DNA of 50,856 nt, taken from positions 86,719 through 137,574 of the forward strand of contig MGYS01000016.1 of the NCBI GenBank assembly GCA_001802565.1. The letters run 5' to 3'. This DNA comes from Gammaproteobacteria bacterium RIFCSPLOWO2_02_FULL_57_10 (GTDB lineage Bacteria; Pseudomonadota; Gammaproteobacteria; Pseudomonadales; Pseudohongiellaceae). Below, in pieces: positions 9,352-37,861 of this stretch; within the stretch, counting starts at the first letter, position 1; every line of letters starts with the position of its first letter. The notes beneath the pieces were generated by a model that was not told the origin of the DNA, searched no databases, and saw only the letters and a list, made by a program, of their open reading frames with translations. The position numbers and the translations under genes are program-made.

Positions 9352-9405
9352 AAAATCAGATGGCAGACCAGAGCAAAGAATGCACTCTGATCTGCCGCCA
9401 AAATC

Positions 9406-11430: not shown

Positions 11431-11476
11431 GAGGATCTCCTTCGTTATTGTTGTTATGAATTCTTGTTATGGTCCG

Positions 11477-13066
11477 TTACTCAAGCTGTTCGCGCGGCGC
11501 AACACCGATCTGCTCGATGAAATACGCCATGAAACGCGCGACACGCTCCAGGCCCGGCGTGGAAATTGTCTCCAGCATGTCGCCATTCGTGTGGTACAGC
11601 GGATTGCCCTGAATCAATTGCAAGAGAACGCTTTCGACATCAGGATTGTCACCAGCGCCATAGGTGCTCGCCTGAGATACAAAATTCAATCCGTAACGCA
11701 ACCCGCCTTCACGAATAATCGACTCGATGAAAGGTGAGCGCTCACTCAAGCCATTCATCAGAAATCCTTCACCCGCGTCCGTGATGACATCACGCACGCC
11801 GTTGGTGGCCGTGCGCGCGGGATTGATCTGCATTGCCGCCACGTGTTCGAGATTCACCGTCAGCACGTTGCGTGCGATCAGTTCGAGATTCATCTCCACA
11901 AGTTGATCCGGGCCATTCAGTCCTGGTGTGTGATGTCCGGCACTGCCGACGAATACCAGTGTGCGCGAAGGGCGATTTTCTGGCTTCGAGAAATGCTCCG
12001 CCAATCCGACCATCACCGCGAGCCCGTCGGCATTGTCATTCGCACCATCGAACCAGCCATCGACGTGCGCGTTGATGATGATGTTCTCCTCGCTCTCACC
12101 AGCCACGATGCCGATCACATTCGACGCACGCATGCCGCCGCGCTCCTCATCCTGCAATGTCAGCGTGGCCTGCAACTGGTTTGATACTCCCGCGAGCGCT
12201 GCTGCATCCATCACCTCTTCGAGAAAGCGTCCGTCCTGCCCACCGAAGTTGAAGCACGGGCCTCCGCAGTTGCTGATGTCGCGCATCCGCATGTTGCCGG
12301 CCTGATCCACGACGTTGAAAACGGCGACGGCGCCGCGATTGATCAGCTCCTGAGCCTTCGCTCTTGCCGGGCCACGTTCGAGAAACAGATGTCCCTTCGG
12401 CGTGATGTGTTGCACCGCGATCTTGCCGCGCACGTCGATGTATTCAAGCTCGGCCGCGCGCGCTGTGCCCACGAATATCAGCGGGGCGGTGAGGCCTTCC
12501 TGAGACAGTACGGTGCCATCGGCTGGCATGGCCGATTCAAGAATCACATCGCGGCTGCCCGGCCCGAAGTTCTCGCTGCCATGGATGCGCACCTCCCAAG
12601 AGTGGGCCAACCACAGGGTGGCATCGGTTGTCTGATTGAACCATTGACGCTCAATGTCAGGGACCCCAGCCTCATTGAAGCGCTGCTCGACCCAGTCCAT
12701 GGTGCGATCGCCCGACGGCAATCCGGTGATGCGGCCCCACAATTGTCCGGTGCCCACCTCATTCGTTTCGCGGCTCCACTTCGAGAAATCGACGATCGCT
12801 TCCAGGTCTCGTCGTAATGCGTCACCTGTCAGTGCCGTATCGTTCTCCTCCCCGGAAGGCACGATGGCAGGTCGCGGGCCGTAATCGCTGCCGATGATGA
12901 CCGGGGCCACTGTGGGATCAAAGCCGGGAGCAGGGGACACGCCGAACCACGGTTGAGTGGTCGCAGGCTGCGCCAGCAAAGGGCCTGCGCCAACGGAGAG
13001 GAGCGCGGTGAGCAGGGCTGTCAGCAGAACGGAAAAGGAGGTGGAGCCGGACTTTTGCTTCGACAT
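11477..13066 (-). CDS. M28-family metallopeptidase with PA domain, secreted
   Basis: HVDGWFDGANDNADGLAVMVGLAEHF zinc-ligand region. Signal peptide after the internal ATG (MSKQKSGSTSFSVLLTALL), so the 65-codon upstream extension was rejected. Confidence 0.75.
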   Translation of the reverse strand: MSKQKSGSTSFSVLLTALLTALLSVGAGPLLAQPATTQPWFGVSPAPGFDPTVAPVIIGSDYGPRPAIVPSGEENDTALTGDALRRDLEAIVDFSKWSRETNEVGTGQLWGRITGLPSGDRTMDWVEQRFNEAGVPDIERQWFNQTTDATLWLAHSWEVRIHGSENFGPGSRDVILESAMPADGTVLSQEGLTAPLIFVGTARAAELEYIDVRGKIAVQHITPKGHLFLERGPARAKAQELINRGAVAVFNVVDQAGNMRMRDISNCGGPCFNFGGQDGRFLEEVMDAAALAGVSNQLQATLTLQDEERGGMRASNVIGIVAGESEENIIINAHVDGWFDGANDNADGLAVMVGLAEHFSKPENRPSRTLVFVGSAGHHTPGLNGPDQLVEMNLELIARNVLTVNLEHVAAMQINPARTATNGVRDVITDAGEGFLMNGLSERSPFIESIIREGGLRYGLNFVSQASTYGAGDNPDVESVLLQLIQGNPLYHTNGDMLETISTPGLERVARFMAYFIEQIGVAPREQLE

Positions 13067-13300
13067 GAAGGTAGCCTCTTGGTCATGAACAGCTTGTATG
13101 CTGCTTTTTGTGCGCCGGGACATGAGCTGGAGCAAAGGTAGAGTCATCGCATGGCTGTGTCCAGCCGTCCGCGTCCATGCGATTGGACTTGGAGGCCGAT
13201 AGCTTTTATGCTGGCCCTCAGCCGTTTGCGCTCTGCAATCAGTCCAATAAAGATGGTTCAATAAAAACGTATCAATAACAACATCAAACGAGGAGCTGTC

Positions 13301-14515
13301 ATGACGACGTCAAGAAAACTGCTAACCACAGCCATTGTCTGTGCCACCGCACTGCTGGCCGGATGTAATGAAGCTGCCAACACGCCCCCTCCTGCGGCAG
13401 CTGCACCCGCCCCGGTAGCCGCTGCACCAGCCCCTGCTCCGATGGCAGCGGCACCTGCGATGCCAGTCGGCAATGTCATTTCCGGCGAAGACATGCCCAA
13501 TCCGAATCCCAATGTGACCCAGAACTGGGGCGAACTGCCTGAAGGTCGCGTCTGGGGATCTACGGCAGGTATCGATATTGATCCAAACGACGGTCACATC
13601 TGGGCCTATGAACGCTGTGGCGCTGGCAATTTCGGTGCCGGCGCCCCCGTCACCTGCGATACCAACCTCGTTGATCCGATTTTCAAGTTCGACCGCAATA
13701 CCGGCGAGGTTCTGGCCAACTTTGGCGCTGGCGTGATGGTGACCCCTCACGGCATCCACGTGGACAGCGAAAGCAACGTCTGGGTCACGGACTTCGCCAC
13801 CAATGAAGATCAGACCAAGGGTCAGCAGGTCCACAAGTTCAGTCCAACGGGCGAACTGCTGATGAGTCTGGGAACTCCCGGGCAGACGGGCAACGACGGC
13901 GCACACTTCAATCAGCCGAATGACGTGATCGTTGGCCCTGACGGCAGCATCTACGTGTCCGATGGCCACAATGGTCAGGGCATGACCACCAATCAGGCGA
14001 TGGCGGAGGGACGTGAATCAGGTCAGACAGCACGTATCATGAAGTTCGCTCCGGACGGCACTTTCATCAAACAGTGGGGCGAGATCGGCGTGCGTCACGG
14101 CGAGTTCCGTACTCCGCATGCGATGGAATTCGATTCACGCGGCCGTCTGTGGGTCGCCGATCGCGGTAACCACCGTCTGGAGATCTTCGATCAGGATGGC
14201 AACTACCTCGAATCGCGTTACATGTTCAGCCGCATCAGCGGCATCTTCATCACCGATGATGACATGCTGTATGCGATCGACTCCGAGTCGAGCCCGACCA
14301 ACCACGTCGGCTGGCGTAACGGTGTGCGCATCGGCCACATCGATCATGACCACGTGACGGCGTTCATTCCTCCGTTCGAGCGTGAGGATCGTGTGTACCA
14401 GGGCACTGCCGGTGAAGGTGTGGCAGTCGATGCCGATGGCAACGTGTATGCGGCCGAAGGTCCGAACTCTCTGAGTCAGGCCGGTGGTGCATTCACCAAG
14501 TACTCGGTGGAATAA
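13301..14515 (+). CDS. NHL-repeat beta-propeller lipoprotein (peptidylglycine-lyase-like fold)
   Basis: Lipobox LLAGC followed by an Ala/Pro-rich linker. Repeated NHL-like blades (FNQPNDVIVGPDGSIYVSD, FRTPHAMEFDSRGRLWVADRGNHRLEIF). GAGGAG RBS. Confidence 0.7.
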   Translation: MTTSRKLLTTAIVCATALLAGCNEAANTPPPAAAAPAPVAAAPAPAPMAAAPAMPVGNVISGEDMPNPNPNVTQNWGELPEGRVWGSTAGIDIDPNDGHIWAYERCGAGNFGAGAPVTCDTNLVDPIFKFDRNTGEVLANFGAGVMVTPHGIHVDSESNVWVTDFATNEDQTKGQQVHKFSPTGELLMSLGTPGQTGNDGAHFNQPNDVIVGPDGSIYVSDGHNGQGMTTNQAMAEGRESGQTARIMKFAPDGTFIKQWGEIGVRHGEFRTPHAMEFDSRGRLWVADRGNHRLEIFDQDGNYLESRYMFSRISGIFITDDDMLYAIDSESSPTNHVGWRNGVRIGHIDHDHVTAFIPPFEREDRVYQGTAGEGVAVDADGNVYAAEGPNSLSQAGGAFTKYSVE

Positions 14516-14529
14516 ACTTCCAGCGCACG

Positions 14530-14555
14530 CTGTGGGAGCTTGCCCTGCAAGCGAT
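14530..14555. repeat. Degenerate single REP unit
   Basis: ctgtgggagcttgccctgcaagcgat resembles the REP core found elsewhere in the window. Confidence 0.3.
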
Positions 14556-14607
14556 GCGTTTCATGAAGACCATGCACAAACAGTTTGCGTATGGTCGAGT
14601 AACAGGG

Positions 14608-14638
14608 AATGGGGGCGCTGAGCCCCCATTCTTTTTTT
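14608..14638 (+). terminator. Rho-independent terminator
   Basis: aatgggggc-gctga-gcccccatt GC-rich stem followed by a cttttttt T-tract, downstream of the NHL lipoprotein gene. Confidence 0.7.
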
Positions 14639-14667
14639 CAACCAAGGCAACAAAGAGCAACATCCCG

Positions 14668-14946
14668 ATGCACGCAACTCTCAGAAAACTCTTCGCCCCC
14701 ATTCTCGACATCTTTGAGCAGGGTGATGGCCCATACGTCTACCGTCCGTCGCATCGCAAGATTCTCATTGCCGTCGGTGCGCTGTTCTTCATTCTGTCAC
14801 TGATCTCGCTCTACTTTTCCATGATAGCCGGTGGCAGTGGCGCGTTTGTGCCAGTCGTGGTGTTCTTCGTGGTGAGTCTGGTGTGTCTCGTCGTGGGTGG
14901 GCTTGGAACAGAGCGTGCGGTGGCGAAAATCTGGGGTAGCAAGTAG
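14668..14946 (+). CDS. Small two-TM membrane protein, unknown function
   Basis: ATG after the terminator. Two hydrophobic helices (ILIAVGALFFILSLISLYF, FVPVVVFFVVSLVCLVVGGL). The upstream part of the listed ORF runs through the terminator and was trimmed. Confidence 0.45.
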   Translation: MHATLRKLFAPILDIFEQGDGPYVYRPSHRKILIAVGALFFILSLISLYFSMIAGGSGAFVPVVVFFVVSLVCLVVGGLGTERAVAKIWGSK

Positions 14947-17816: not shown

Positions 17817-18158
17817 TCACCTAACTGATCGAGTCTCCTGACCCAGTTTGTCGATTACCCACTGATTCAGACTTTTTCCTTCGGCAGCGGCAGCGTGAGC
17901 AATATCCGCGTGGAGTTCCCTGGGTATGCGTAAATTGAATTTGCCTGAATACTGTCGCAAAGGGTCGACATTTTCTTCTGCACACATTTCAAGAAAGACT
18001 TTCAACGAAAGTTCACCCTCGTGCCGAAGTCCAGCCACGTCGCGCGCGTAAAAATCAGCACTGCCACTGAGATCAACAAACTCGCCCCTGAACATCTCGA
18101 TATCCGGGTCGTATTGAATGATGGCGCGATAGCCGTTGATGGTCATGCTGTTCCTCAT
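17817..18158 (-). CDS. hicB: HicB-family antitoxin
   Basis: YRAIIQYDPDIEMFRGEFVDL...GKFNLRIPRELHADIAHAAAAEGKSLNQWV. The ATG overlaps the hicA stop as ATGA at 18155-18158. Confidence 0.8.
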   Translation of the reverse strand: MRNSMTINGYRAIIQYDPDIEMFRGEFVDLSGSADFYARDVAGLRHEGELSLKVFLEMCAEENVDPLRQYSGKFNLRIPRELHADIAHAAAAEGKSLNQWVIDKLGQETRSVR

Positions 18159-18409
18159 GGCTTGACTCCGTTCTCCTGTAACCAATTGCGAATGGAGCAG
18201 ATAGCTCCTTTGTCGACTTCAGGCGTAGGGTGAGGTCGGTGAAACACCCGTCGCTCACCGAACAATCTTACGCCTACTCGGGAGCCCTCTCGCTCGGAGA
18301 CAGTGGCACCAAGGGCAATCAGCAGAGCCTCGACTTCACGCCAATGGAGATTGGCGGCGGCCGGGCGCGCGTAAAGTTTCTTCAAAGTGGCAAGATGTTT
18401 GGATCGCAT
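18155..18409 (-). CDS. hicA: HicA-family mRNA interferase toxin
   Basis: LHWREVEALLIALGATVSEREGSRVGV...HRPHP is HicA-like. Internal ATG (MRSKHLATL) chosen. Confidence 0.8.
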   Translation of the reverse strand: MRSKHLATLKKLYARPAAANLHWREVEALLIALGATVSEREGSRVGVRLFGERRVFHRPHPTPEVDKGAICSIRNWLQENGVKP

Positions 18410-24724: not shown

Positions 24725-25135
24725 ATGTCATCCGCCGTATCCAGACCAGAAGCCGCCAGCAGCAGTGACGCATTGGCCCATTTCGAATCCCTGCTGCGCT
24801 TTGAAACCGACTGCTGGGACGTTCACCATGCCCTGACCAATGGCCGTCAGGACTTCGTGCTGCTCGACGTGCGCGGCGAAGAGTCTTTCAAGAAGGCGCA
24901 TGTGGCCGGTGCCGTGAACATTCCCCACGCCCGTCTTTCCGTGGAGTCACTGGCGCAGTACCCCGCTGATACGCTTTTCGTCGTCTACTGCGCAGGGCCG
25001 CATTGCAACGCCACCGAGAAGGCGGCAATCAGACTTGCGAAACTGCATCGCCCGGTCAAGAAAATGATCGGCGGCGTCTGCGGCTGGCTCGATGAAGGCT
25101 TCACCCTGACCGGTTCCGAGGAGCAGAAGCAGTGA
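24725..25135 (+). CDS. Rhodanese-like domain protein
   Basis: LLDVRGEESFKKAHVAGAVNIP and active-site loop YCAGPHCNAT. Confidence 0.75.
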   Translation: MSSAVSRPEAASSSDALAHFESLLRFETDCWDVHHALTNGRQDFVLLDVRGEESFKKAHVAGAVNIPHARLSVESLAQYPADTLFVVYCAGPHCNATEKAAIRLAKLHRPVKKMIGGVCGWLDEGFTLTGSEEQKQ

Positions 25136-25623
25136 ACGGTGAACTGCGTATACGCTCAGCCCGACTGGACGATGTCGGACAACTGCTGGCGCTCATGCGG
25201 GCGCTGGCAGAGTTCGAGGGCTACATCACCGACTTCAAGGTGAGCGAGAGCGAGCTGCGACGCCGCTGCTTCGTCAATCAGGATTTTCATGTACTGGTCG
25301 CGGAGGTGGGTGAAGAACTGGTCGGGATGCTCGTGTACTACACGCAGCCCTTCACCTACGATCTCGCGCCGTGGTTTGTCATCAAAGAGCTGTTCGTGCG
25401 TGAATCCTCGCGCGGGCATGGGGCAGGCAGAAAGCTGATGAAGGAAGCGGCGCTGCGTTGCGTGGAGGAGGGTGGCAGCCGGTTGCGCTGGGAGGTACTG
25501 GTGGACAATCCGGCAGCGAAGAAATTCTACAGTTCACTCGGGGCGCAGGCCGATACGCAGTGGCAGACCTGGCAGCTGTCGCGCAGCAGGTTGGTGAATT
25601 TTGCGAACGCGAAGGATTGTTGA
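25132..25623 (+). CDS. GNAT-family N-acetyltransferase
   Basis: LFVRESSRGHGAGRKLMKEA acetyl-CoA motif. GTG start overlaps the rhodanese stop (GTGA). Confidence 0.8.
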   Translation: MNGELRIRSARLDDVGQLLALMRALAEFEGYITDFKVSESELRRRCFVNQDFHVLVAEVGEELVGMLVYYTQPFTYDLAPWFVIKELFVRESSRGHGAGRKLMKEAALRCVEEGGSRLRWEVLVDNPAAKKFYSSLGAQADTQWQTWQLSRSRLVNFANAKDC

Positions 25624-27251: not shown

Positions 27252-28598
27252 TCAATCCCTCATCAGCGTGATCTGCGTATCCTCATCCAGCCTTGTCCAC
27301 GTGCCGGTAATCTGCCCGCCACTCAGAGCCCCCACAAAGCGCGCATCGATCGCGTTGATCTGAAAGCGCAGGCTCTGCCCCTCCAGTGCAACGCCGCTCA
27401 CAGGCACATTGATCATGCCGACACTGGCGATATCGAGGAACGTGTCAAAGCCGCCATCGGCGGTGGCCGCGAATCGGAACACCAGATCCGCACCCGTGAC
27501 ATTGCCGCGCCAGGTGCCCTGCAGATAGCGCTGTGCATCGGCGGTGAGATCGGGATTCGGGACATAGGGCCCGCGCGTCAATGCGATAGGAGACTGCTGA
27601 CCCGCCTGCTGCCACTGCGCGTCGATGCTGTCCTGCGCCAGCGTGCCGGTGAGCGAGCCACCAATGACGGCGGCGGAGAGGGTCAACTGATCGCCATCCA
27701 ACTGGATCTGCGTGATGGGAATATTGCTGGCACCCTGATCCTGGCTGTCGAAGAAAGCGGCGAAGCGGCCGCTTGCCGTGCGCTCGAAACGAAAGACCAG
27801 ATTGAGTGGGCCGATCTGGCCGTGCCACGGACCTTCAAGACGCGCGAACTGTTCCTCGGACAACGGCAGTCCCGCCGCCTCGTACTCTCCGCGTGTCAGA
27901 TTCAGCTCCAGTGATCTGCTGGCCTGCACCCAGTCGCCATTCAGCGCGTCACCATCCAGAGTGCCGATGAACTCCATGCGCGCGCGATTGACGGACAGGG
28001 TCAGTTCGTCATTGATCATGCCGACGCTGTCCACCGGAATGCCCATGGTGCCCTCGTCCGGGCTGTCCATGAACGCCGCGAATTCACCCTGAGCATCGCG
28101 CTCGAAGCGGAACACCACAGTGACTTGCAGATCGTCATCGGGATTGGGTCGCAGCGTGCCTACCCAGGAGCCGAGAATGCGCTCCATGTCGGCCGCTGTC
28201 AGAACAGGCTCGACGTAAGGGCGCAGAGTGAGAGGAACGGTGGAGCCGGGTTGTGTCCAGCTTCCCGTCACCACACCATCGGTGAGGCGACCGGCGAAGG
28301 AACCACTCAGCGCGGCAACACCAAGACTCAGGCCGCCACCTTCAAAGCTCACGTCTTCCACCGGCAGATTCTGCAGGGCGGGTTGCTCTGGAGAGCTGAC
28401 GGTAGCCGTCAGCTGACCATCGGCATCGCGCACGAAATTGAAATGCATCTCGATGCCCTGGCCGGGTGCGATCTCCAGCATGCCTTCCCAGATGCCGGTC
28501 AGGTCGTCCTGAGCGAGAACGGATTGAGTCGTCAACGCCATCATTGCCAGCAACAGCCTTGTGAAAAACCGGCCCATCATTCCTTGCACTATTCCCAT
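27252..28598 (-). CDS. Secreted protein built from four tandem ~100-aa repeats, unknown function
   Basis: Signal peptide (LLLAMMALTTQSVLAQD). Four units each begin G-x-W-x-G, contain F-R/N-F...G-x-F/L-x-A...P-V/I...F-x-G-x-L...G-x-W and end L-T/M-R. Confidence 0.6.
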   Translation of the reverse strand: MGIVQGMMGRFFTRLLLAMMALTTQSVLAQDDLTGIWEGMLEIAPGQGIEMHFNFVRDADGQLTATVSSPEQPALQNLPVEDVSFEGGGLSLGVAALSGSFAGRLTDGVVTGSWTQPGSTVPLTLRPYVEPVLTAADMERILGSWVGTLRPNPDDDLQVTVVFRFERDAQGEFAAFMDSPDEGTMGIPVDSVGMINDELTLSVNRARMEFIGTLDGDALNGDWVQASRSLELNLTRGEYEAAGLPLSEEQFARLEGPWHGQIGPLNLVFRFERTASGRFAAFFDSQDQGASNIPITQIQLDGDQLTLSAAVIGGSLTGTLAQDSIDAQWQQAGQQSPIALTRGPYVPNPDLTADAQRYLQGTWRGNVTGADLVFRFAATADGGFDTFLDIASVGMINVPVSGVALEGQSLRFQINAIDARFVGALSGGQITGTWTRLDEDTQITLMRD

Positions 28599-28609: not shown

Positions 28610-28960
28610 CTGGATCACGACATCAATGGAGCGCGACAGTATCACAGAGCGTCCATTTTGTCTGAACCGTCTGGTACGGCTCGCCGGGATCAGATTCAGG
28701 CGTTCCGCACGTTTCAGATTTGGGAGGAGCATCGGGAATGCTATGGCTATCCGGAAACTGCGCCAGCAATGCGCCGCAAGGTGTTCGGGTTGAATGCTGC
28801 GGTGCCGTATGGCATCACCGAGGACGAAACACCAACGCATACGAGCAGTGATGCCGTGGCGCGAAGAAAGGAGAACGATCGCAATGATCCGCAGCCGCAC
28901 TATCTGGCGTTCTGGCCGAAGAATCGAAGAGAGTTTCTCCGTTTCTTGAAGTGGAGTTAA
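28610..28960 (+). pseudogene. 3' remnant of an amidohydrolase-family gene
   Basis: QIQAFRTFQIWEEHRECYGYPETAPAMRRKVFGLNAAVPYGI...PKNRREFL matches only the C-terminal ~110 aa of metal-dependent amidohydrolases. There is no N-terminal body, and the upstream space is occupied by the opposite-strand gene. Confidence 0.5.
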
Positions 28961-29047
28961 CGACTTGCGACACGTCGATCTCACGGTGAAAGTTCAAATT
29001 TATGAGTTAATCATGTCAGCGATATAGGAAGCTAGGTTGTAGAAAAA

Positions 29048-29596
29048 CTAACTCAAGGTGCATTTACGAGATAGCCATTTCCTGATGAGAATCAACCTGT
29101 AAATGGAAAAAAGTAAAGCGCATAGAAAATATGCGATTCCGGGAATCATTATTGTTGGAAAACCAATGTCGCTACCCCACGGCGCAGTAGTGAGCAATAT
29201 GAACAAGTTCAAGCTGAAAGCAAGGTAGTAGAGATAAACGATAACTGACTCAGAGACAGCGAGTTCGGACCTTGAAAGATCGACCGTTGTCGCTGAAGAC
29301 CTAAGCGCAAGCGTCACGAAAAGTATGCTGAAAATGGTTATTCCGATAATGGTAATAAGCACGTTGATATACAAGAATGAAGAGGCCCCCCTTGTAATTC
29401 TAGAGACAGCCCCGAACCAAAGTGAGAAGGGAAGTGCTGCAAAGCATACAACTGTAGAGAGCCTGTAAACTTTAACCAAGAACTCAATTTTTCCTTTCGA
29501 TAGCTCGTGTGCAGTAACATGCTTTGGATTCTCAGAGAAGTAACTACCGGATACCGCATTTAGATAGAAACTATCATCATACTTGTATATAGCCAT
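29048..29596 (-). CDS. AT-rich four-TM membrane protein, candidate immunity/self-protection protein
   Basis: Last gene of the peptide operon. Four hydrophobic helices, AAGGA RBS and markedly AT-rich codon usage. No family recognised. Confidence 0.5.
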   Translation of the reverse strand: MAIYKYDDSFYLNAVSGSYFSENPKHVTAHELSKGKIEFLVKVYRLSTVVCFAALPFSLWFGAVSRITRGASSFLYINVLITIIGITIFSILFVTLALRSSATTVDLSRSELAVSESVIVYLYYLAFSLNLFILLTTAPWGSDIGFPTIMIPGIAYFLCALLFSIYRLILIRKWLSRKCTLS

Positions 29597-29630
29597 GACA
29601 TATCCTTTTGAAAGGCATCGTAGAGTTTAC

Positions 29631-29681
29631 AAAGCACAATTGTTAAATCCATTTTATTCAGAAAAATAACAATTGTGCTTT
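29631..29681 (-). promoter_or_regulatory. Perfect 15-bp stem-loop between the precursor peptide gene and the downstream membrane-protein gene
   Basis: aaagcacaattgtta - 21-nt loop - taacaattgtgcttt. No T-tract follows on the coding (minus) strand. Confidence 0.4.
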
Positions 29682-29722
29682 CAGTACCGGGCCGGGCCGG
29701 TTTTTAAGCTACTTTAAGCTTT

Positions 29723-29977
29723 TTAAGAAGAAGTCTCTTCAGATGAGACTGATCCACCACCCATTGATGCAAGATTCATGATTACAGATCCACCTACTCC
29801 GAGAACTGCGGCACTAACAGCAAGCGATGCTGTTACTACTGCTCCTGCAGCGAGGAATGGAAGTGTGGCCGCTGTAGCTGCACCAATGAATGCGTACGTG
29901 GCTCCAGCGGCGTAGGTGTACGCATCAAACTCCCCACCAGAAACAATACCTATCTCTTCAACCGTAAGTAATCGCAT
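29723..29977 (-). CDS. Double-glycine-leader precursor peptide (class II microcin/bacteriocin-like), 84 aa
   Basis: The leader MRLLTVEEIGIVSGG fits the LSxxELxxIxGG consensus at positions -12, -8, -7, -4, -2 and -1. AAGGAG RBS lies 6 nt upstream. The gene sits immediately downstream of the C39-ABC exporter gene. The 69-aa core is Ala/Gly/Ser-rich and hydrophobic. Confidence 0.75.
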   Translation of the reverse strand: MRLLTVEEIGIVSGGEFDAYTYAAGATYAFIGAATAATLPFLAAGAVVTASLAVSAAVLGVGGSVIMNLASMGGGSVSSEETSS

Positions 29978-30037
29978 GACAAAACTCCTTGTAGAAAATT
30001 GATTTCCAGATAAAGCCATGACAGAAGGCTCAATTAA

Positions 30038-30065
30038 ATACTAGTACAGAAATACAATAATTCAA
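30038..30065 (-). promoter_or_regulatory. Candidate sigma-70 promoter for the precursor peptide gene
   Basis: On the minus strand, TTGAAT - 16 nt - TAGTAT lies in the AT-rich 106-nt spacer between the ABC gene and the peptide gene. Pattern match only. Confidence 0.25.
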
Positions 30066-30083
30066 TAAATTGGCATGAATCCG

Positions 30084-32201
30084 TTACGGCACATCACCGA
30101 TGTGTTCGCGAAGGATACAGTTATCAAGAATCAGCACTCGATTAGCAATCGCCAATGGAGCCGTTCGATGCGTGATGAAGATTACGGTAATGTTCAATGC
30201 ACGAATCTCCTCCAGAATCGCACCCTCCGTCTCAAGGTCAAGATTCGCGGTGGCTTCATCCAGGAACAGGATGCGCGCGTTCTTGTAGAACGCTCGTGCG
30301 AGCAGAATGCGTTGCCCTTGCCCCGATGACATGATCGATCCCATATCGCCGATCAGGCTGTTGTAGCCCATGGGCAATGACTGGATGAACTGATCTATCC
30401 GCGCCATATGCCCGGCTCTTTGCAATCTTGCGTGATCCACTTCGTCATCGAACAGCGTGATGTTGTCCATGATCGTGCCGGACAGCAGTTGATCAGTTTG
30501 CAGAATGCCCGCACAGGCATCACGATACTGACGCACACCAAATTGCTGCACGTCGGTGCCATCCACTTTCAGTGAGCCGGTGTCTGGCTGCAGCAGTCCT
30601 GCCATCAATTTCATCAAGGTCGATTTGCCGGAGCCAGACGGGCCAACAATGGCGATGATTTCACCCGCAGCAACGTTGAGGTTGAGACCACTCAGAACGG
30701 GACAGGCGCTGCCAGGGTAGGCATAGGACACATTTTCCAGTGTCAGTGCGCCCTGTATCGGCACGCGTAATCTGGGCAGGTGGAGACTGTCGAACTCTTT
30801 CTCGGTACAGGTAATGTCGGAGACACGTTCGAGCTGTAGCCGCACCAACCGGATCTGCACGATCTTCTCGATGAAGGAGCGGATAGATGAGGAGAAATTG
30901 CCTTTGAGTGCGACGAACGCGGTAAGAAAGCCCAGCGTGATTTGCCCTTCAAGCACCAGTGTTGCGGCGAGATAGATGATCAACACATTCTCCAGCGCGA
31001 ACAGCAGGCCGTAAACGGCATCGATGTTGATGGTGAAACGAGTCAGTACCACATTGGTATTGATCTGCTCGGCATAATAGTTGCGCCAGAGCATGACGCG
31101 GGGCAGCTCGCGACAGTAGAACTTGATGATCTCGATGGCGCGCATGTTCTCCATGAGATTGGAGCTGGTCTTGGCGTCGGACACGATCTTCTGTTCCTGT
31201 AATGCCTGGATCTTCGGAATCAATGCAATCTTGAGCGTAGTGGCCAGCGTCACGAACAACAGGACCACCGAGGCGAGTGTGACATTGAAGTAGAACATCA
31301 CGACCAACGTCATCAAGGCAAACAGCCCGTCGAGAACGACGGTGATCAGGTCTTCGGTGATGATGCGGCGAATCTCGCGAATGGAACCGAAGCGCGACAC
31401 CAGATCGCCGACATGACGTTTCTCGAAGAATTCCACCGGAAGGGTGATGAGATGATTGAAGACATTGCTCACCATCTGGAAGCCGAGCTGATTGGAGAAA
31501 TAAAGTTGAACCTGTGCCCGTGCGTAAGTCATTGCGACACTCGTCAGTCCGAGCATGAAGAAACCGATGGCCAGCACGGTGAGGAAGTCACGATCCTGTT
31601 TCGCCAGCCCTTCGTCGATGACAAGTTGCATGTAGAACGCGCCGCCGATCGAAGCCAGTTGCAGCAGCAGCGATAACAGGAACAACTGTGTGACAGCGGT
31701 GTAGAAGCCGCGATAGCGCTCGAACAACTCCATGAGCTTCGAGCGCAGCAACTGGGTCTGCGGTTTGAACGCTGCGCCCGGTGTGAACTCCACTGCGATG
31801 CCCGTGAAGTGGCGGCTCGTCTCTGCCATGCTGTACTGTCGCTCACCCGCCGCCGGATCATGAATCACGATGGACGTCGTCGTGACTTTCTTCAATACGA
31901 CAAAGTGAGTCATGTCCCAGTGCAGCACCGCAGGCAGTTGAAGGTTCTGCAGGTCCTCCATCTCCAGTTTCAACGGACGGGTATTCAGGTCCAGTGCGCT
32001 GGCGATGCTGAGAATCTCGGCGAGATTGGCCCCGCGAGAAGAGATCGGATATTCACGCCGCAGAGTGTTCAGATCGATACGGCGCCCGAAATGGCTTGCC
32101 ACCATGGCGACGCAGGCAAGGCCGCATTCGGCGCGTTCTGCCTGCAGAATGATCGGCAGGGAATGCCTGGAGCAAAACAGCGTGTCGACAAGAGCCCGCA
32201 T
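30084..32201 (-). CDS. Peptidase C39 domain-containing bacteriocin ABC exporter (CvaB/HlyB type)
   Basis: N-terminal C39 with Cys (QAERAECGLACVAM), His (HWDMTHFVVL) and IHDPA. Six-TM region. Walker A GPSGSGKST, signature SSGQGQR, Walker B ILFLDEATANLD. Confidence 0.9.
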   Translation of the reverse strand: MRALVDTLFCSRHSLPIILQAERAECGLACVAMVASHFGRRIDLNTLRREYPISSRGANLAEILSIASALDLNTRPLKLEMEDLQNLQLPAVLHWDMTHFVVLKKVTTTSIVIHDPAAGERQYSMAETSRHFTGIAVEFTPGAAFKPQTQLLRSKLMELFERYRGFYTAVTQLFLLSLLLQLASIGGAFYMQLVIDEGLAKQDRDFLTVLAIGFFMLGLTSVAMTYARAQVQLYFSNQLGFQMVSNVFNHLITLPVEFFEKRHVGDLVSRFGSIREIRRIITEDLITVVLDGLFALMTLVVMFYFNVTLASVVLLFVTLATTLKIALIPKIQALQEQKIVSDAKTSSNLMENMRAIEIIKFYCRELPRVMLWRNYYAEQINTNVVLTRFTINIDAVYGLLFALENVLIIYLAATLVLEGQITLGFLTAFVALKGNFSSSIRSFIEKIVQIRLVRLQLERVSDITCTEKEFDSLHLPRLRVPIQGALTLENVSYAYPGSACPVLSGLNLNVAAGEIIAIVGPSGSGKSTLMKLMAGLLQPDTGSLKVDGTDVQQFGVRQYRDACAGILQTDQLLSGTIMDNITLFDDEVDHARLQRAGHMARIDQFIQSLPMGYNSLIGDMGSIMSSGQGQRILLARAFYKNARILFLDEATANLDLETEGAILEEIRALNITVIFITHRTAPLAIANRVLILDNCILREHIGDVP

Positions 32202-33436
32202 TACAGTTTTCTGCCCAGGCTTGTCAGTGGTGAAAACAATCGTTCGAGGAGATTACTGCTACCCGTGATGATTTCGGCCGAGAACTGCATGCCTGATCTG
32301 AACTGGGCGTCGTTCGCATGATGTTGGTCGATCCGCGCGCGCACGAGATAGGCAGGTTCGTTCAAATCCAGAGGGATCAAGAATTCTCGCGGGTCCATGA
32401 CAGACGACGAGACATTGACGACCGTTGCCGCAAAAGTCCCGTGCGTCTGGTAGGGGAAGGCATCGTAGGAGAGCATGATCTCGTGTCCCACCTGCACTTT
32501 TCCCACAGCGCGTGAGGGCAGATACAGTCGCGCTTCCAGCACGGCATCGTGTGGCACCAGTGTTGTGAAAGGAATCCGGGGATCGACGGTATCTCCCGGG
32601 CGCAAGAGTAGATTGCTGAGTGTGCCGTCCGCTGGAGCGAGAAGAGTGAACAGCCCTTGTGAACCAAGCTCGTCCTGCTGCGCGAGCAATTGAGAGAGTG
32701 TGCTCTGCATCGAGAGCCATTCCTCCTGTACTGCGAAGGGCTGCAGGGCAAGCTGTTGTCTCGCCTCTTCCAGAGCGAGCTTGCGTCCCTCGATATTCAG
32801 ACGTGTCGTCGTGCTCGTCTGCTGAAGAGCGTACCAGGTTGATTCGACCTGGTTGTGCTCGCGATTGGAGATGGACTTGCGCGCCAGCAGAGTGGCGCTG
32901 CTCCTGTACTCCTGTTCTGCGAGAGCGAGTCGCTTCAGGACCACATCATGCTCTTCCTGCAACAACGCCAACTCTTCGCTCAATCCTGCGATACGAGCAC
33001 GTGATTGTTCTTTGGCGATCAGTGCGCGCTTCTCAAGAACAGCGATTCTCTCCTGCAGTTGCGCGATCTGTTTTCCGGTGTGCTCGAGGAGGACACTGGT
33101 GGACCGCCGCCCGGCCTCGTCCGAGCGCCCAGCAGCGATCGTTGCCAGGATATCGCCCTGACGTACACGTTGTCCTTCGATACCACGAATGTCCAACAGG
33201 ACGCCGGAACGTTCGCTGTAAACCTTGATCTCTCCTGCAGAGGGGATCAGATGTCCCCTCACCATCTCGGTTTCCTTTATCTGCACCAGAGCAGCGAAGG
33301 AGACGAATGAGAGGAAAATCAGTGTGATCCCGATCACCATCGCACGGACGGTCAGAGGTTGATAGAAAAGCGCATCACCGTATTGCGATGCTGTGCTTGC
33401 GAGCAAGGCTTCCCGACGGAACAGTTCTGAAGTCAT
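32201..33436 (-). CDS. HlyD/CvaA-family periplasmic adaptor (membrane fusion protein)
   Basis: FRREAL N-terminus, TM helix VIGITLIFLSFVSFAALV, long coiled coil and C-terminal beta domain. AGGAG RBS. TAATG overlap with the ABC start. The upstream extension in the track reads through a REP and was rejected. Confidence 0.85.
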   Translation of the reverse strand: MTSELFRREALLASTASQYGDALFYQPLTVRAMVIGITLIFLSFVSFAALVQIKETEMVRGHLIPSAGEIKVYSERSGVLLDIRGIEGQRVRQGDILATIAAGRSDEAGRRSTSVLLEHTGKQIAQLQERIAVLEKRALIAKEQSRARIAGLSEELALLQEEHDVVLKRLALAEQEYRSSATLLARKSISNREHNQVESTWYALQQTSTTTRLNIEGRKLALEEARQQLALQPFAVQEEWLSMQSTLSQLLAQQDELGSQGLFTLLAPADGTLSNLLLRPGDTVDPRIPFTTLVPHDAVLEARLYLPSRAVGKVQVGHEIMLSYDAFPYQTHGTFAATVVNVSSSVMDPREFLIPLDLNEPAYLVRARIDQHHANDAQFRSGMQFSAEIITGSSNLLERLFSPLTSLGRKL

Positions 33437-33449: not shown

Positions 33450-34784
33450 TCACATTCGGTTATCGCGAACAGGGCTCGCTCCCACAGAAGGGCAGCGGTG
33501 CTCGAAGTAGTTTGGCAGTGAGCTGAGGTATTTCCACTGGGCAGGGCTTCGCGAGATCCATTTCTCCGCAAGGTTGACAAGCTGTTGGGTGATGCGTGAT
33601 GTGGCGTCGTCCAGAGACTCGCCAGTCAACAGTTCCGTGTCGATGACAGCTTCCATCTCGATGTGGCTCTGACCATCCCTTTCGAATGTGATGAAAGGGA
33701 GGATGGGCGCCTTTCCCATGATCGCCAGTTGCGCCGGGCCCTTGACGAAGCGAGCAGCGTGGCCAAAGAAGGTGACAGCTACTGTGCCGCCAAACTCCTC
33801 TTTAAGATCGAACATGATGGCTAGCGTGTGATCTCCCCTGCGCAGAGCGCTGACGATACTCACAGGGTTGTACTGGCCGTGCCTCAATACTCTGTGCCCG
33901 GGTCGATTACCAATGACGTAGTCTTTCTCCCTTGCGCTGTCCTGCTCGCGTCGAAGAGAAATGGCTGCACGTTTTGGACCTGCAAGCGCTGCAAGGCATT
34001 TGAATGCACCGAGAAAATCTCCCATGTGAATGGTCGCCAGAACGCGGGAGCCTGGTTGAGCTGCGATGTATGCGATGTAATCCTTTCTTTCCGGCCAGAC
34101 GAATGCATCGAGGTAGCGTTGGCCGTCGGCGAATCCGTGCAGATGAACATGACGTTTCGCAAAGTTGTATTCGCAGTGAAAGCGACATTCTCTCAACATT
34201 GCCTGAACCACATGTTCTGGCTCGTGCAACAGCATACCGAGAATTCGCGTGTGAACGTCGGTCGCGAGGCGTTCCGTTGGCAGTGACTCTTCCAGCGCGA
34301 ACCGCAGACGGAGAAGAGCGCGCAAGAGAATTTTTCTGAGCGCAATGGATTGTCCGGATACCACGCACCGCTTGGACAGGTTCTGCACTATCAGTAGAAT
34401 GCGCTCAGAGAGCGTAAAAGGAATCGAAATCCCATCCTTGGAATCGCCTTCGAAACTCTGAATGACTGCATCGTGAAGCTGCAACGCGTAGCGAAGCAGC
34501 GATTCGCATTCCTGATATACGTAATCCGTCTTCACGAGTTCGACCCGAAGGCTAAGCTCAGTCTGCAGCACCCGCACTCCGGGATCGAGCGCAGGCAATT
34601 TCTGCCGCAATGCGCGCGTCACCGAAATCATGCGCAGACTCAGCAGGTACTCCATCGCAGAGCAGCAATACTCCATACTTCGGCGACATTCGTCATACTG
34701 CAGGCAACGCCACGCGTTCAGCAGGGTTTGCCGAACGGAGGGCAGCCGGATTGTGGACAACTGTGCTGGCAGAGTGTCTTCCAT
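33450..34784 (-). CDS. LpxL/lysophospholipid acyltransferase (LPLAT, PF03279-like) family protein with ~200-aa N-terminal extension
   Basis: The C-terminal half has ATIHMGDF (HxG[ND][WF]-type catalytic region), LRRGDHTLAIMFD and FFGHAARFVKGPAQLAIMGKAPILPF. The N-terminal helical region has no TM anchor that I can see. The last ~12 codons are encoded by a REP unit. Confidence 0.6.
   Translation of the reverse strand: MEDTLPAQLSTIRLPSVRQTLLNAWRCLQYDECRRSMEYCCSAMEYLLSLRMISVTRALRQKLPALDPGVRVLQTELSLRVELVKTDYVYQECESLLRYALQLHDAVIQSFEGDSKDGISIPFTLSERILLIVQNLSKRCVVSGQSIALRKILLRALLRLRFALEESLPTERLATDVHTRILGMLLHEPEHVVQAMLRECRFHCEYNFAKRHVHLHGFADGQRYLDAFVWPERKDYIAYIAAQPGSRVLATIHMGDFLGAFKCLAALAGPKRAAISLRREQDSAREKDYVIGNRPGHRVLRHGQYNPVSIVSALRRGDHTLAIMFDLKEEFGGTVAVTFFGHAARFVKGPAQLAIMGKAPILPFITFERDGQSHIEMEAVIDTELLTGESLDDATSRITQQLVNLAEKWISRSPAQWKYLSSLPNYFEHRCPSVGASPVRDNRM
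33462..33486. repeat. Single REP unit inside the 3' end of the acyltransferase gene
   Basis: atcgcgaacagggctcgctcccaca. It is translated as ...PSVGASPVRD... in the acyltransferase frame. Confidence 0.75.
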
Positions 34785-34793: not shown

Positions 34794-35102
34794 TCAGATC
34801 GTGGTCGGTTCCTTTGTGATGCAGGCCCGGTGAATCAGCGTGATGAGATCGCCAACCGTCTCCAGTTCCGCCATCAGTTGTTCGTCCGCCACTATTGCAA
34901 AGCGCGCCTCAAGAGCGAAGATGATTTCAACCAGTTTCAAGGAGTCCATTCCAAGTGAGCCGAGGCTTGTCGAATGTGCGAGTTCGATGTTGCAACGGCC
35001 TGAGTTCCGCAAGAGCTCCGTTACGACCAACTCTATGTTCTGTAATATGACTCCATGTGACCCCTCTTCCTGCGACGTCATAGCCTTCTCATGACAGTTC
35101 AT
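34794..35102 (-). CDS. Acyl carrier protein
   Basis: Phosphopantetheine attachment motif LGMDSLKLVE. The ATG overlaps the ligase stop as ATGA at 35099-35102. Confidence 0.8.
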   Translation of the reverse strand: MNCHEKAMTSQEEGSHGVILQNIELVVTELLRNSGRCNIELAHSTSLGSLGMDSLKLVEIIFALEARFAIVADEQLMAELETVGDLITLIHRACITKEPTTI

Positions 35103-36757
35103 GCAACCACTCCTTGTGCTTGTGTACGGACACTGAATTTCACAGAGCTTTCCAGGTAACGCTCCCTGCAACGCTCTCTCTGAAGTTTGCCGCTGGTTGT
35201 CAGGGGTAGTGCTCTTCTGGGGACGATTTGAACATCATCAGGCGCGATACCAAATTCATCGCACACCAGTGTGCTGGCAGCCGTCGGTATGGTGGTCATC
35301 ATCGCACCGCTGACGGTACTGGCGTGCTCCAGCAACAGGATCAGCGCATCGCTTTCATCATTCGGGACAGTGAACGCTGCGCAACGCGTGATGCCTTGAG
35401 TGTTGAGAACTCTCTCCACTCTTTCCTCGATATCTTCGGCATGAAATGTACGGCCGCGTCGCTTGAACACGTTCTTGAGTCGTCCCACGAAATGGAGCGT
35501 GCCCTGCCTGATGAATCCGAGATCGCCGGTCCGCATATAACCCCGCACGCCATCAAGGACTTGATCGAACGTCGTTCGTGTAGCGGCTGCATCATTGAAA
35601 TATCCCGGCGAGAGGGATGAAGACCTGAGCCACACCTCCCCAGTCGTTCCATCCGGAAGAGGACGCTGTTTCAGCGGGTCCACGATGACAATACTGTCTT
35701 GTTCCATGATGCGGCCCACTCCCGGATAATCGGTCTGGGAGGAGGGCGTGACACCATACTGACCACATACAAAGAGCGTTGACTCAGCCATGCCGTAGCA
35801 AGGGAAGAACGCTTCCTTGTCGAATGACGCGCTTGCGAACCGGCGCGCAAATCGTGCCAGAACGGAGGGAACGATTCTTTCGGAACCGCAATAGGCAAGA
35901 CGCCATGTGCTCAGATCCAACGGCTCCTCATCCTGTCGGAAAGGTTCACCATTTTCCGCGCACAGTGCATAGGCGAAAGTGGGCGCGCCACTGATCGTGG
36001 CTTTGCATCTGGAGATGGCGCGCAACCAGCGTAGTGGGTCACCAATGAAATCCGCAGGAGAAAGAAAATAGTTCGGCACGCCGCAGTAAAGAGACTGGAT
36101 GACATGACCGATCAGTCCCATATCGTGATGGAACGGCAGCCAGGATACGCAGACATGTTCCGGGGAACAGCCAAAACGTTGCCTGATGCTTTCGGAATTG
36201 TGCAACACATTCGCGTGCGTCACGATGACACCGCGCGGATGTGAGGTGGAGCCGGACGTGTATTGAATGAAGGCAATGTCGTGTGGTTGCACATCCGGGC
36301 GTTGCCACGATGCAACATCGACAGGCCAGTCAGGCACATCGGTGCAAAGGACTTGCACACGCCCTGCATGCAACAGCGCTTGCGGAATCAGCCTTTGCGT
36401 CGAGGAAAGCGTGAGGACAGTAGTCGCGCCACTTGTCGCAATCGTCCTTAAAACACTTGTCCAATCTTTCCCACGAGGCTTTGTGAGTGGCATGGGCCAT
36501 GCTCCGGCGAGAATGGTGCCTAGAAAAGCGACAATGAAGTCAGGGCCGTGAGGATAGAGCAGCGCGATGGGTGATTTCTGCAATCTGCGCTGCTGCAGGA
36601 CTGCGGCAATAGTCACCGCTTTGTCGTACAGTGCTGCATAGGTCAATTCGTGACTGATCGAGACTTCCTTGTTCAGAAAGGCATACAACCTTTGGTGCGG
36701 AGATTGATTGACCTGCATTTCCACAATGGATAGCAGATCCTGCTTGGTGGCTGACAT
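35099..36757 (-). CDS. Fatty acyl-AMP ligase-type adenylating enzyme (AMP-dependent synthetase/ligase)
   Basis: FIQYTSGSTSHPRGVIVTHANVLHN (AMP-binding core), YMRTGDLGF and TTSGKLQR. Followed directly by an ACP rather than using CoA, which is the FAAL arrangement. Confidence 0.8.
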   Translation of the reverse strand: MSATKQDLLSIVEMQVNQSPHQRLYAFLNKEVSISHELTYAALYDKAVTIAAVLQQRRLQKSPIALLYPHGPDFIVAFLGTILAGAWPMPLTKPRGKDWTSVLRTIATSGATTVLTLSSTQRLIPQALLHAGRVQVLCTDVPDWPVDVASWQRPDVQPHDIAFIQYTSGSTSHPRGVIVTHANVLHNSESIRQRFGCSPEHVCVSWLPFHHDMGLIGHVIQSLYCGVPNYFLSPADFIGDPLRWLRAISRCKATISGAPTFAYALCAENGEPFRQDEEPLDLSTWRLAYCGSERIVPSVLARFARRFASASFDKEAFFPCYGMAESTLFVCGQYGVTPSSQTDYPGVGRIMEQDSIVIVDPLKQRPLPDGTTGEVWLRSSSLSPGYFNDAAATRTTFDQVLDGVRGYMRTGDLGFIRQGTLHFVGRLKNVFKRRGRTFHAEDIEERVERVLNTQGITRCAAFTVPNDESDALILLLEHASTVSGAMMTTIPTAASTLVCDEFGIAPDDVQIVPRRALPLTTSGKLQRERCRERYLESSVKFSVRTQAQGVVA

Positions 36758-36886: not shown

Positions 36887-37861
36887 ATGATCACGGAAGA
36901 AATTGGAAGAACGGATTCCTGCGCGCAGAACCATAGCGAATTTTCAGCAATGGTGGTGGGAAAAATTCTTTGGGAGTACGAAAAGGCGCCTTGTCGCATA
37001 CAAAGTCTCTACGAACTTGCCAAGGAGAAAATGTGGAATGCCAACAGTGATGTGCCGTGGAATGATTTCGGTCGTGACAGATCCTTTCCTTCCTCGCACG
37101 AAAGCGAACCACTGACAGGATTTGCGGAGTATGAGGCGCTTCCGGATGATGAAAGGCGCCGCATCAGTTGGTGGCGGCACGCGCTGGAGATCAGCGAGAT
37201 TCTCCATGGCGAGCAGGGTGCGTTGCTGGTCGCCTCGCAACTGGTCTCGTGCCTGCCCACTGTGGAATCCAAGTTGTTTGCGAGCTCACAGGTCTTTGAT
37301 GAAGCGCGGCATGTAGAATTCTTTTCGCGCTATTTGCGCGAAGTGGTTGGCGAAATTCATCCGCCGAGCGAGGAGTTGAAGCGGCTCATTCAATCGATGG
37401 TAGACGAACCGCGCTGGGACATGAAGTTCATCGCCTGTCAGATTCTGATCGAGAGTCTGGCGATGGCGAAATTCCAGGAGATTCGTCAGTCAACACAGGT
37501 GCCGGTGCTCGCCTTTGCGATTGATTACATCGCGGCTGATGAAGCACGGCACGTGAAATTCGGCACGGAGTTTCTCAAGGATCATCTCGCCAGTCTGAGC
37601 GCTCCCGAACTCGCGGAGCGCAGCGATTTCGTGCTCGATAATGTGCTGCGCCTGGCGAATTCATTGAATATCACCACGCGTATCGCGGAATCGTACGACT
37701 GGGATGTAGCGGCTCTGCGTCATCATCTGCGTCAGTATCGTGTACGCCATCCCGAGATCAATCGCAATCGCTTTCGCCAATTGCTCATCAATCTGAAGGC
37801 AGTGGGTTTGCTGACCGAGCGGACGCACATGCGGATGATGTCTATGGAGGTGATGCGGTAA
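36887..37861 (+). CDS. Ferritin-like diiron-carboxylate protein (oxygenase/desaturase-like)
   Basis: Ligand pattern E...ExxH...E...ExxH: ILHGEQGA, FDEARHVEF, ILIESLAM and AADEARHVKF. Divergent from the ligase operon. The start is uncertain. Confidence 0.6.
   Translation: MITEEIGRTDSCAQNHSEFSAMVVGKILWEYEKAPCRIQSLYELAKEKMWNANSDVPWNDFGRDRSFPSSHESEPLTGFAEYEALPDDERRRISWWRHALEISEILHGEQGALLVASQLVSCLPTVESKLFASSQVFDEARHVEFFSRYLREVVGEIHPPSEELKRLIQSMVDEPRWDMKFIACQILIESLAMAKFQEIRQSTQVPVLAFAIDYIAADEARHVKFGTEFLKDHLASLSAPELAERSDFVLDNVLRLANSLNITTRIAESYDWDVAALRHHLRQYRVRHPEINRNRFRQLLINLKAVGLLTERTHMRMMSMEVMR

Follow-up and report, generated by a model that had tools for sequence, protein, structure and literature searches.

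About 15 microcins have been characterised, all of them from Enterobacteriaceae (PMC10233263). Those of class IIb combine export by a peptidase-containing ABC transporter (PCAT) and a membrane fusion protein (MFP) with an adjacent immunity gene and a tail that ends in serine and carries an appendage made by dedicated neighbouring genes (PMC10233263). In this study we analysed a stretch of 50,856 nucleotides (hereafter the window; contig MGYS01000016.1) from Gammaproteobacteria bacterium RIFCSPLOWO2_02_FULL_57_10, family Pseudohongiellaceae, which contains a gene for an 84-amino-acid precursor (29723..29977 including the stop codon, minus strand) composed of a 15-residue double-glycine (GG) leader and a 69-residue core. 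The system works most like the class IIb microcins without belonging to them. Judged from its sequence and context, the precursor very probably belongs to a microcin-like bacteriocin of class II that is accompanied by an immunity gene of its own, and it represents a very rare, new family of such precursors. The fuller explanation that we prefer, namely that this microcin-like precursor is exported, O-acylated on its tail and carried in an immunity cassette, is proposed tentatively, as falling somewhat short of probable.

Two other systems share features of this locus. In hlyCABD, a toxin gene, the acyltransferase HlyC, which depends on acylated acyl carrier protein (ACP), and the ABC/MFP exporter of the acylated product lie in one locus. 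The locus logic, with acylation before ABC/MFP export, would be the same here, but HlyC belongs to another enzyme family and forms N-epsilon amides on lysine, which our core lacks; moreover, HlyB has an inactive C39-like domain and a C-terminal signal in place of the intact C39 domain and N-terminal GG leader of the window, which also encodes a dedicated fatty acyl-AMP ligase (FAAL) and ACP. The raxX-raxSTAB system of Xanthomonas, likewise from a gammaproteobacterium, has the same operon architecture, with a tailoring enzyme encoded upstream of the MFP and PCAT and a GG-leader substrate alongside that is modified before cleavage and export. There, however, the enzyme is a tyrosyl sulfotransferase, the product is a signalling mimic and no immunity gene is present.

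Fatty acylation has also been described for peptides that are made by the ribosome and modified after translation (RiPPs), i.e. the selidamides, lipolanthines, goadvionins and lipoavitides, all of which depend on N-acyltransferases of the GNAT superfamily acting on Lys or Orn side chains or on the N-terminus (PMC13647313). These share with our system a ribosomal precursor, often a GG cleavage motif, and cluster-encoded fatty-acyl transfer, but in the window the enzyme has a PatA/LpxM (LPLAT) fold, the core contains neither Lys nor Arg, and the chemistry would be O-ester formation. No GNAT was found among the operon proteins (Pfam, NCBIfam), and the closest GNAT-like open reading frame (ORF) lies in the conserved flank (25132-25623, plus strand). 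Lysine acylation of the HlyC/RTX or selidamide type is ruled out, as the peptide has no lysine and the enzyme is of the wrong family; an earlier interpretation made from the DNA letters alone (the sequence-only reading) had rightly called N-epsilon acylation impossible for this peptide. The literature searched describes neither a connection of any FAAL/ACP/LpxL-type system with lipidated microcins or GG-leader peptides nor the coupling of an LPLAT-type enzyme to such peptides.

The precursor ORF is a real gene under purifying selection. It comprises 84 codons and a TAA (29977..29723, minus strand), its translation is the one given in the sequence-only reading, and an AAGGAG ribosome-binding site is placed 7 nt 5' of the ATG at 29977; an alternative in-frame ATG (30019) has no ribosome-binding site and is not kept in the related locus L038. 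The identical 84-residue product was predicted by gene callers on four independent metagenome contigs. Comparison of the window with the L001 allele (71% amino acid identity) gave a dN/dS of 0.17, and comparison with L035 a value of 0.046 (13 synonymous and 2 non-synonymous changes); L001, L036 and L037 are identical in DNA and therefore add nothing on selection. The frame, start, stop and ribosome-binding site are kept across alleles that are only ~70% identical in DNA, and between the window and the diverged allele the synonymous sites of the core are saturated (pS 0.68). The ORF first noticed in the sequence-only reading is thus confirmed by its ribosome-binding site, dN/dS and independent gene calls. 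That reading had named the lack of a comparable small ORF at homologous loci as an argument against its proposal; close relatives retain the ORF, while distant loci have a different GG-leader peptide at this position or none.

The leader, MRLLTVEEIGIVSGG (29933..29977, minus strand), has a recombination breakpoint at its 3' end. Its key positions (L-12, E-8, I-7, V-4, G-2 and G-1) are all as the sequence-only reading had placed them. The 15-residue format M-R-E-L-x3-E-I-x2-V-x-G-G is common to the peptides of the sister loci described below and recurs in at least ten peptides encoded behind homologous PCATs. In the window, the PCAT gene (705 codons, 30084..32201, minus strand; Pfam C39, ABC_membrane and ABC_tran) ends 106 nt upstream of the ATG of the peptide gene. 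Its C39 domain matches that of LahT (6MPZ, E = 7e-21) and retains the Cys, His and Asp motifs, so that it is predicted to be intact with its catalytic triad kept. Upstream of the PCAT gene lies that of a 411-residue HlyD-family MFP (32201..33436, minus strand; Pfam HlyD_3, with a TIGR01843 match below cut-off), whose stop codon overlaps the PCAT start by 1 nt. The Pfam, NCBIfam and LahT matches therefore bear out the proposal of a genuine GG-leader precursor beside an intact C39 peptidase/ABC exporter.

The composition reported earlier for the core was also correct: of its 69 residues 17 are Ala, 9 are Gly, 9 are Ser and 4 are acidic (3 Glu and 1 Asp; net charge -4), and C, H, K, Q, R and W are absent. 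It contains a hydrophobic stretch of ~50 residues, and its C-terminus, GGGSVSSEETSS, is Ser-rich and acidic and has Ser as its last residue. The segment SSEETSS (29726..29746, minus strand), which is conserved and predicted to be disordered, is a candidate handle for modification or recognition. Over the last nine codons, which include this segment, there is one non-synonymous change, while ~7 of 7.7 synonymous sites have changed, and the amino acids of the tail are invariant in the window, P0001 and P0081 despite this saturation. Within the mature peptide, no part is under stronger constraint than the tail. An AlphaFold model of the precursor places a short helix in the leader, shows a second helix that is long and hydrophobic, and leaves the tail disordered, at a moderate confidence (pLDDT 71, pTM 0.26) at which the unbroken 55-residue helix should not be over-read. 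The view that an anionic hydrophobic core is unusual proved wrong for Gram-negative microcins, most of which are neutral or anionic (PMC10233263).

By the definition of class II microcins used for our tests (PMC10233263), the traits found here are a leader of ~15-19 residues ending in GG or GA, a PCAT and an MFP encoded nearby, and a core of ~60-90 residues that is highly hydrophobic and neutral or anionic. The resemblance to class IIb (MccH47, MccE492, MccM and MccI47) includes this leader and mode of export, an adjacent (here putative) immunity gene, a hydrophobic, Ala/Gly-rich core of this size and charge, and a Ser-rich tail ending in Ser, which in class IIb is the handle for the appendage. 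The core shows no homology to those of class IIb, the tail is the acidic SSEETSS and not the Gly/Ser siderophore motif (~8 residues), and a FAAL, an ACP and a PatA-fold acyltransferase are encoded instead of siderophore-attachment functions; furthermore, the host is an environmental groundwater gammaproteobacterium and not an enterobacterium. No alignment of the tail to class IIb tails was obtained, and siderophore-attachment genes (glycosyltransferase, esterase, MceIJ/MchCD) were not found among the nine proteins scanned between 27252 and 37861 (Pfam, NCBIfam), namely the seven of the operon, peptide included, a flanking 448-residue protein and the diiron oxidase. With the tail motif lacking and attachment genes absent from these nine proteins, a class IIb siderophore microcin is ruled out, and the parallel with class IIb tails drawn in the sequence-only reading did not hold in this respect. 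The peptide also resembles the class IIa microcins (MccV, MccL) in leader format, in the PCAT/MFP/immunity logic and in its size and hydrophobicity, but it has no PF17508 match, it contains no Cys and hence no disulfide, and it is encoded on the chromosome behind an acylation operon.

A word-indexed search of 5.8 billion protein clusters returned one relative of the peptide, and a full HMMER search of 1.84 billion representatives gave 9 matches at E <= 1e-3, only 5 of which were small peptides (P0081 and P0083-P0086). All five have GG or GA leaders and a common central motif, (A/V)(L/I)PF(L/I)(G/A)AGAV...AAVLGVGG. One of them, P0083, passes TIGR01847 (16.4 against a cut-off of 15.7) and matches the MccV model PF17508 weakly, below gathering (E = 0.0085). 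Against six class II microcins of enterobacteria the family profile scored at most 13 bits, and this score was driven by the leader. Neither the peptide nor the acyltransferase had a tblastn match among 72,556 plasmids. The hydrophobic core of P0081 (residues 28-67) gave a weak, sub-threshold match (E = 0.047) to subunit c of the F0F1 ATP synthase, which is probably compositional; microcin H47 reportedly targets the F0 sector.

The second component of the proposed bacteriocin system is encoded by a gene beginning 126 nt after that of the peptide (29048..29596, minus strand). Its 182-residue product has four hydrophobic segments and no family match, and is a putative immunity protein. The protein family is as small as that of the peptide, just 4 clusters having been found among 5.8 billion. 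In L001 and L038 the peptide is followed by a homologue, and in L041 and L042 by a similar membrane ORF of ~170 residues; peptide and membrane ORF (~170-183 residues) thus recur as a pair in these loci.

Both genes occupy a low-GC cargo slot (28957..30083, GC 0.43-0.48) that is absent from L006, the closest peptide-less relative; over the segment 28500-30500 the GC content is 0.43-0.48, against 0.55-0.62 in the flanks. DNA identity to L001 is 95-100% across the PCAT gene, the leader and the 106-nt spacer between them (2 of the 45 leader nucleotides differ between the alleles), falls to 50-70% exactly at the Gly-Gly leader/core junction (~29933), remains low over the core, the spacer and the 182-codon gene, and recovers at 28956. 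Homology to L006 extends through the PCAT gene to 30135 and resumes at the same point, 28956. The 182-residue protein thus diverges jointly with the core, a pattern typical of bacteriocin/immunity pairs that are exchanged while an exporter-specific leader is retained, and the core and the putative immunity gene form such an exchangeable cassette.

The exporter genes are part of a minus-strand operon in the order FAAL, ACP, acyltransferase, HlyD, PCAT, peptide and 182-residue membrane protein, as defined by Pfam, NCBIfam and PDB sequence searches together with gene calls on identical metagenome contigs. From FAAL to PCAT the successive genes are separated by -4, +9, +13 and -1 nt. For the 552-residue FAAL (35099..36757, minus strand), the strongest single-enzyme NCBIfam matches are to FAAL families (E 4e-97 to 4e-79), all under the curated cut-offs, and the best solved relatives in the PDB sequence search are all FAALs (E = 9e-96). 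By these comparisons the enzyme is closest to FAALs and not to acyl-CoA synthetases, and its partner ACP is encoded beside it (102 residues, 34794..35102, minus strand); the ACP carries a GMDSL phosphopantetheine site and the start of its gene overlaps the FAAL stop by 4 nt.

The acyltransferase gene (444 codons, 33450..34784, minus strand) ends 13 nt before the HlyD start. Its product consists of an N-terminal helical domain and a C-terminal PatA/LpxM-fold (LPLAT) domain, matches PF03279 with 38.5 bits (gathering cut-off 22.3), and gave an AlphaFold model, built with 18 homologues, of pLDDT 86 and pTM 0.84. In this model the C-terminal ~250 residues superpose on mycobacterial PatA (Foldseek E = 5e-10, TM 0.73) and on LpxM, and no solved structure matched the N-terminal ~185-residue helical domain in Foldseek. 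The PF03279 score and the modelled fold place the enzyme in the LPLAT / LpxL-PatA family. PatA and LpxM are both O-acyltransferases that use hydroxyl acceptors, and the O-acylation alternative raised in the sequence-only reading therefore fits the enzyme that is present. The general interpretation given there has consequently survived in part: the GG precursor, the exclusion of lysine acylation and the fit of O-acylation stand, while the supposed oddity of an anionic core does not.

Divergently oriented from the operon is the gene of an AurF-like ferritin-fold di-metal oxidase (324 residues, 36887..37861, plus strand; PF11583 at 52 bits), the nearest solved relatives of which, at weak E-values, are R2-like ligand-binding oxidases and an aldehyde-deformylating oxygenase. 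It is syntenic with the operon in nearly all loci.

Since the exporter genes are packed with those of a FAAL, an ACP and an O-acyltransferase in one operon, we infer that a fatty acid is transferred onto the tail of the peptide. In the mechanism that we propose, the C39 domain of the PCAT would recognise the 15-residue leader and cut after Gly15, and the 69-residue hydrophobic, anionic, helical core would be exported via PCAT/HlyD and an outer-membrane channel encoded elsewhere, while the four-segment membrane protein of 182 residues would protect the producer. Sequence and comparative data support this first part of the scheme well. The FAAL would load a fatty acid, possibly tailored oxidatively by the diiron oxidase, onto the dedicated ACP, and the PatA/LpxM-fold enzyme would then transfer the acyl group, before export, as an ester to a hydroxyl of the tail, which is strictly conserved and predicted to be exposed (SSEETSS, most likely at a terminal Ser). 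The product would be a lipidated microcin. Toxicity, immunity and the role of the peptide as acyl acceptor are all presumptive in this scheme. Acylation of this peptide is a serious possibility that stops short of being probable, and the choice of a tail Ser as the acylation site is doubtful.

The proposed link between tail and acylation can be examined in sister loci. The block formed by the divergent AurF gene, FAAL, ACP, acyltransferase, HlyD and PCAT is syntenic in ~24 genome and ~15 metagenome loci, with acyltransferase identities of 36-66%; the genome loci belong mostly to Pseudohongiellaceae and unclassified Gammaproteobacteria. With a loose leader pattern and a Shine-Dalgarno filter, GG peptides with good ribosome-binding sites were found directly behind the PCAT in L015, L017, L019, L022, L026 and L061, and these constitute three further unrelated core families of 50, 55 and 86 residues, the first of which passes TIGR03949 (24 against 21.5). 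All four families of the canonical loci end in Ser, mostly after acidic residues (...EETSS; ...EFVSDS/...EFVSNS; ...YLESDS/...YLSDDS; ...VADDS). With a background of 9.6% for C-terminal Ser, the post hoc probability of this for four independent families is ~9e-5. Since families A and C contain no Lys, any chemistry shared by the families is not Lys acylation. These comparisons indicate that the acidic, Ser-terminated tail tracks acylation-type loci, the acyltransferase and the co-inherited PCAT/HlyD clade being indistinguishable as its cause.

The 50-residue peptide is paired with the 55-residue GG peptide in L015, L019 and L026, an arrangement resembling a two-peptide bacteriocin; L017 and L061 have the 50-residue peptide as well. 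The GG peptides of the sister Pseudohongiella loci are located at 14338-14671 (L015), 14608-14941 (L019), 14365-14699 (L026), 13753-13905 (L017) and 14580-14732 (L061).

A different arrangement occurs in the distant loci L030, L031 and L073, where short, LPLAT-only homologues of the acyltransferase (~272 residues) stand beside HlyD-PCAT genes with a GG peptide nearby, and without FAAL and ACP. The loci span 420-1617 (L030), 7984-13261 (L031) and 698-4932 (L073), and the gene order in L031 is GG peptide, 75-residue membrane ORF, 429-residue ORF, acyltransferase, HlyD and PCAT. These loci point to a link between LPLAT enzymes and PCAT exporters that is broader and has not been described. At its most general, our proposal is that an LPLAT enzyme with FAAL/ACP and a diiron oxidase O-acylates the Ser-terminated tails of GG-leader bacteriocins to give lipo-microcins, on a platform that accepts tail-marked toxin/immunity cassettes; in this form it is plausible but slightly more tentative than acylation of the present peptide.

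The alternative that survives best, and which we regard as plausible if not quite as strong, treats the peptide as a class IIa-type microcin that is not modified and for which the PCAT/HlyD pair is no more than the exporter; the FAAL, ACP, acyltransferase and oxidase would then act on another GG-leader cargo encoded elsewhere or on an envelope lipid (of lipid A type or a lysolipid). Characterised members of the fold family, PatA and LpxM, acylate glycolipids and not peptides. The two core homologues with enough context, P0085 (NCBI genome GCA_030160655.1) and P0086 (a TARA contig), are encoded behind plain HlyD-PCAT pairs, without FAAL, ACP or acyltransferase; their PCATs are 39% identical to that of the window, and their ends (...IISLSS and ...LTGMSW) lack the acidic tail. 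The peptide and acylation modules are therefore separable. In addition, at about two-thirds of the loci that combine acylation with export, no GG peptide is encoded within 10 kb of the acyltransferase gene in either direction, and the PCAT is followed by toxin-antitoxin or housekeeping genes instead. In the window, the cassette of peptide and immunity genes is an insertion of low GC content that L006 does not have and that probably arrived recently.

Further points also count against O-acylation of the tail. The acyltransferase motif is H-M-G-D, with the acid at +3, and not the classical HX4D/E; its His253 is invariant in the 18 homologues and is a candidate for the catalytic His, the sequence alignment with PatA spanning only the C-terminal third of the enzyme. 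The rule of Ser-terminated tails is post hoc, is based on four families and is inseparable from co-inheritance with the PCAT/HlyD clade; P0085, from a plain locus, likewise ends in Ser, and in the distant loci with a short acyltransferase the last residue of the peptides is C, D or S. The microcin assignment itself must reckon with the absence of any match of the window peptide, even at E <= 10, to TIGR01847, TIGR03949, PF10439, PF17508 or any microcin model, including the GG-leader models that the sequence-only reading had suggested as a check. In view of the peptide-less loci, the homologues with plain exporters and the mobility of the cassette, acylation of this peptide stays at the level of something that we infer.

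Several features nevertheless speak against an unmodified peptide. The acyltransferase/HlyD/exporter pairing in an operon is found in every locus (with a 13-nt gap) and persists in the distant short-acyltransferase loci, and the C39 domain is intact, which means that the exporter needs a GG-leader cargo. Moreover, Ser-terminated tails occur in four unrelated peptide families, and purifying selection on the tail is very strong.

These last two observations could have another origin, which we consider unlikely: the tail may determine export by the PCAT/HlyD clade, or recognition of and uptake by the target cell, and not serve as acyl acceptor, so that any acylation might occur elsewhere (e.g. 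at Thr or Tyr near the EFDAYTY head). This agrees with the correlation of the tail with locus type, given that the acyltransferase and the PCAT/HlyD clade are always co-inherited in these loci, and with the role of the C-terminal region of class IIb microcins in receptor-mediated uptake (PMC10233263). PCATs, however, recognise the leader at the N-terminus (LahT and PCAT1, the structural homologues, are proteases directed by it), and the homologues from plain loci are presumably exported without such a tail.

It is very unlikely that the peptide is a secreted signal or surface-active amphiphile with the 182-residue protein as its receptor or processing partner. GG leaders do occur on pheromones, and relatives of the peptide gave weak, leader-driven, sub-threshold matches to a peptide-pheromone model, but no sensor kinase or response regulator adjoins the peptide gene, a hydrophobic helical core of 50 residues is unlike known pheromones, and an abrupt break at the GG junction, beyond which the core and the downstream membrane protein diverge together, is what toxin/immunity cassettes typically show. 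Finally, the low-complexity composition and the lack of a curated family match might suggest that the frame is open by chance, as an Ala/Gly-rich translation of GC-rich DNA, but this is ruled out to the point of near certainty by dN/dS (0.046-0.17, with frame, start, stop and ribosome-binding site conserved), by a surrounding region that is AT-rich and not GC-rich, and by GG-leader homologues behind PCATs in unrelated genomes.

If O-acylation of the tail is true, it would constitute a new lipidation chemistry for RiPPs, in which an LPLAT-fold enzyme forms an O-ester on a peptide Ser. It would also provide a second C-terminal tag logic in Gram-negative bacteriocins, as the fatty-acid counterpart of class IIb siderophore tagging, and a compact, portable platform for genetically encoded lipopeptides consisting of a leader, a tail, three enzymes and an exporter. 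Even without acylation, the locus would reveal a rare microcin-like toxin/immunity family in environmental Gammaproteobacteria, with cassette exchange precisely at the leader/core junction.

Other DNA occupies the slot behind the PCAT gene in relatives without the peptide. In the peptide-less loci L006 (14696-14953 and 16529-17009) and L007 (14875-15548 and 16456-17064) it contains toxin-antitoxin-like pairs, which from their translations we judged to be Phd/YefM-like, RelE/ParE-like, VapC-like and HigA/HigB-like; the site therefore acts as a hotspot for mobile cargo in general. Scans for Rfam families and tRNA genes, over the cluster and over the whole window, found nothing, so that the slot is neither a riboswitch nor an integration site of the tRNA/tmRNA type. 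At its distal edge, a 100-codon ORF (28658-28960, plus strand) is the C-terminal remnant of a 486-residue gene product whose gene is intact in L006 (14931-16391, minus strand), and it marks a deletion. The adjacent gene (27252-28598, minus strand) encodes a 448-residue protein with a signal peptide and internal repeats (32% self-similarity at an offset of ~140 residues) and without a Pfam or NCBIfam match; as the protein is encoded beside the slot in L006 as well as in the window (72% identity), it does not belong to the cassette. Elsewhere in the window, a 122-residue ORF (17817-18185, minus strand) resembles, as judged by eye, a HicB-type antitoxin with a ribbon-helix-helix-like C-terminus.

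The spacer between the peptide and the 182-codon gene contains a perfect 15-nt inverted repeat, AAAGCACAATTGTTA / TAACAATTGTGCTTT, with a 21-nt loop (29631..29681), which is unique within the window. The repeat, with arms at 29631-29645 and 29667-29681, overlaps a promoter-like site (29646..29617), and the predicted fold of the spacer has a z-score of -3.5. The core of the repeat, GCACAATTG, is kept in L001 and L038 despite changes to saturation in the coding DNA on its flanks. The repeat may serve as an operator, or as a hairpin at the end of a transcript, by which the ratio of toxin to immunity expression is set. A GC-rich hairpin is also present directly 3' of the peptide stop codon, and shows compensatory variation between loci.

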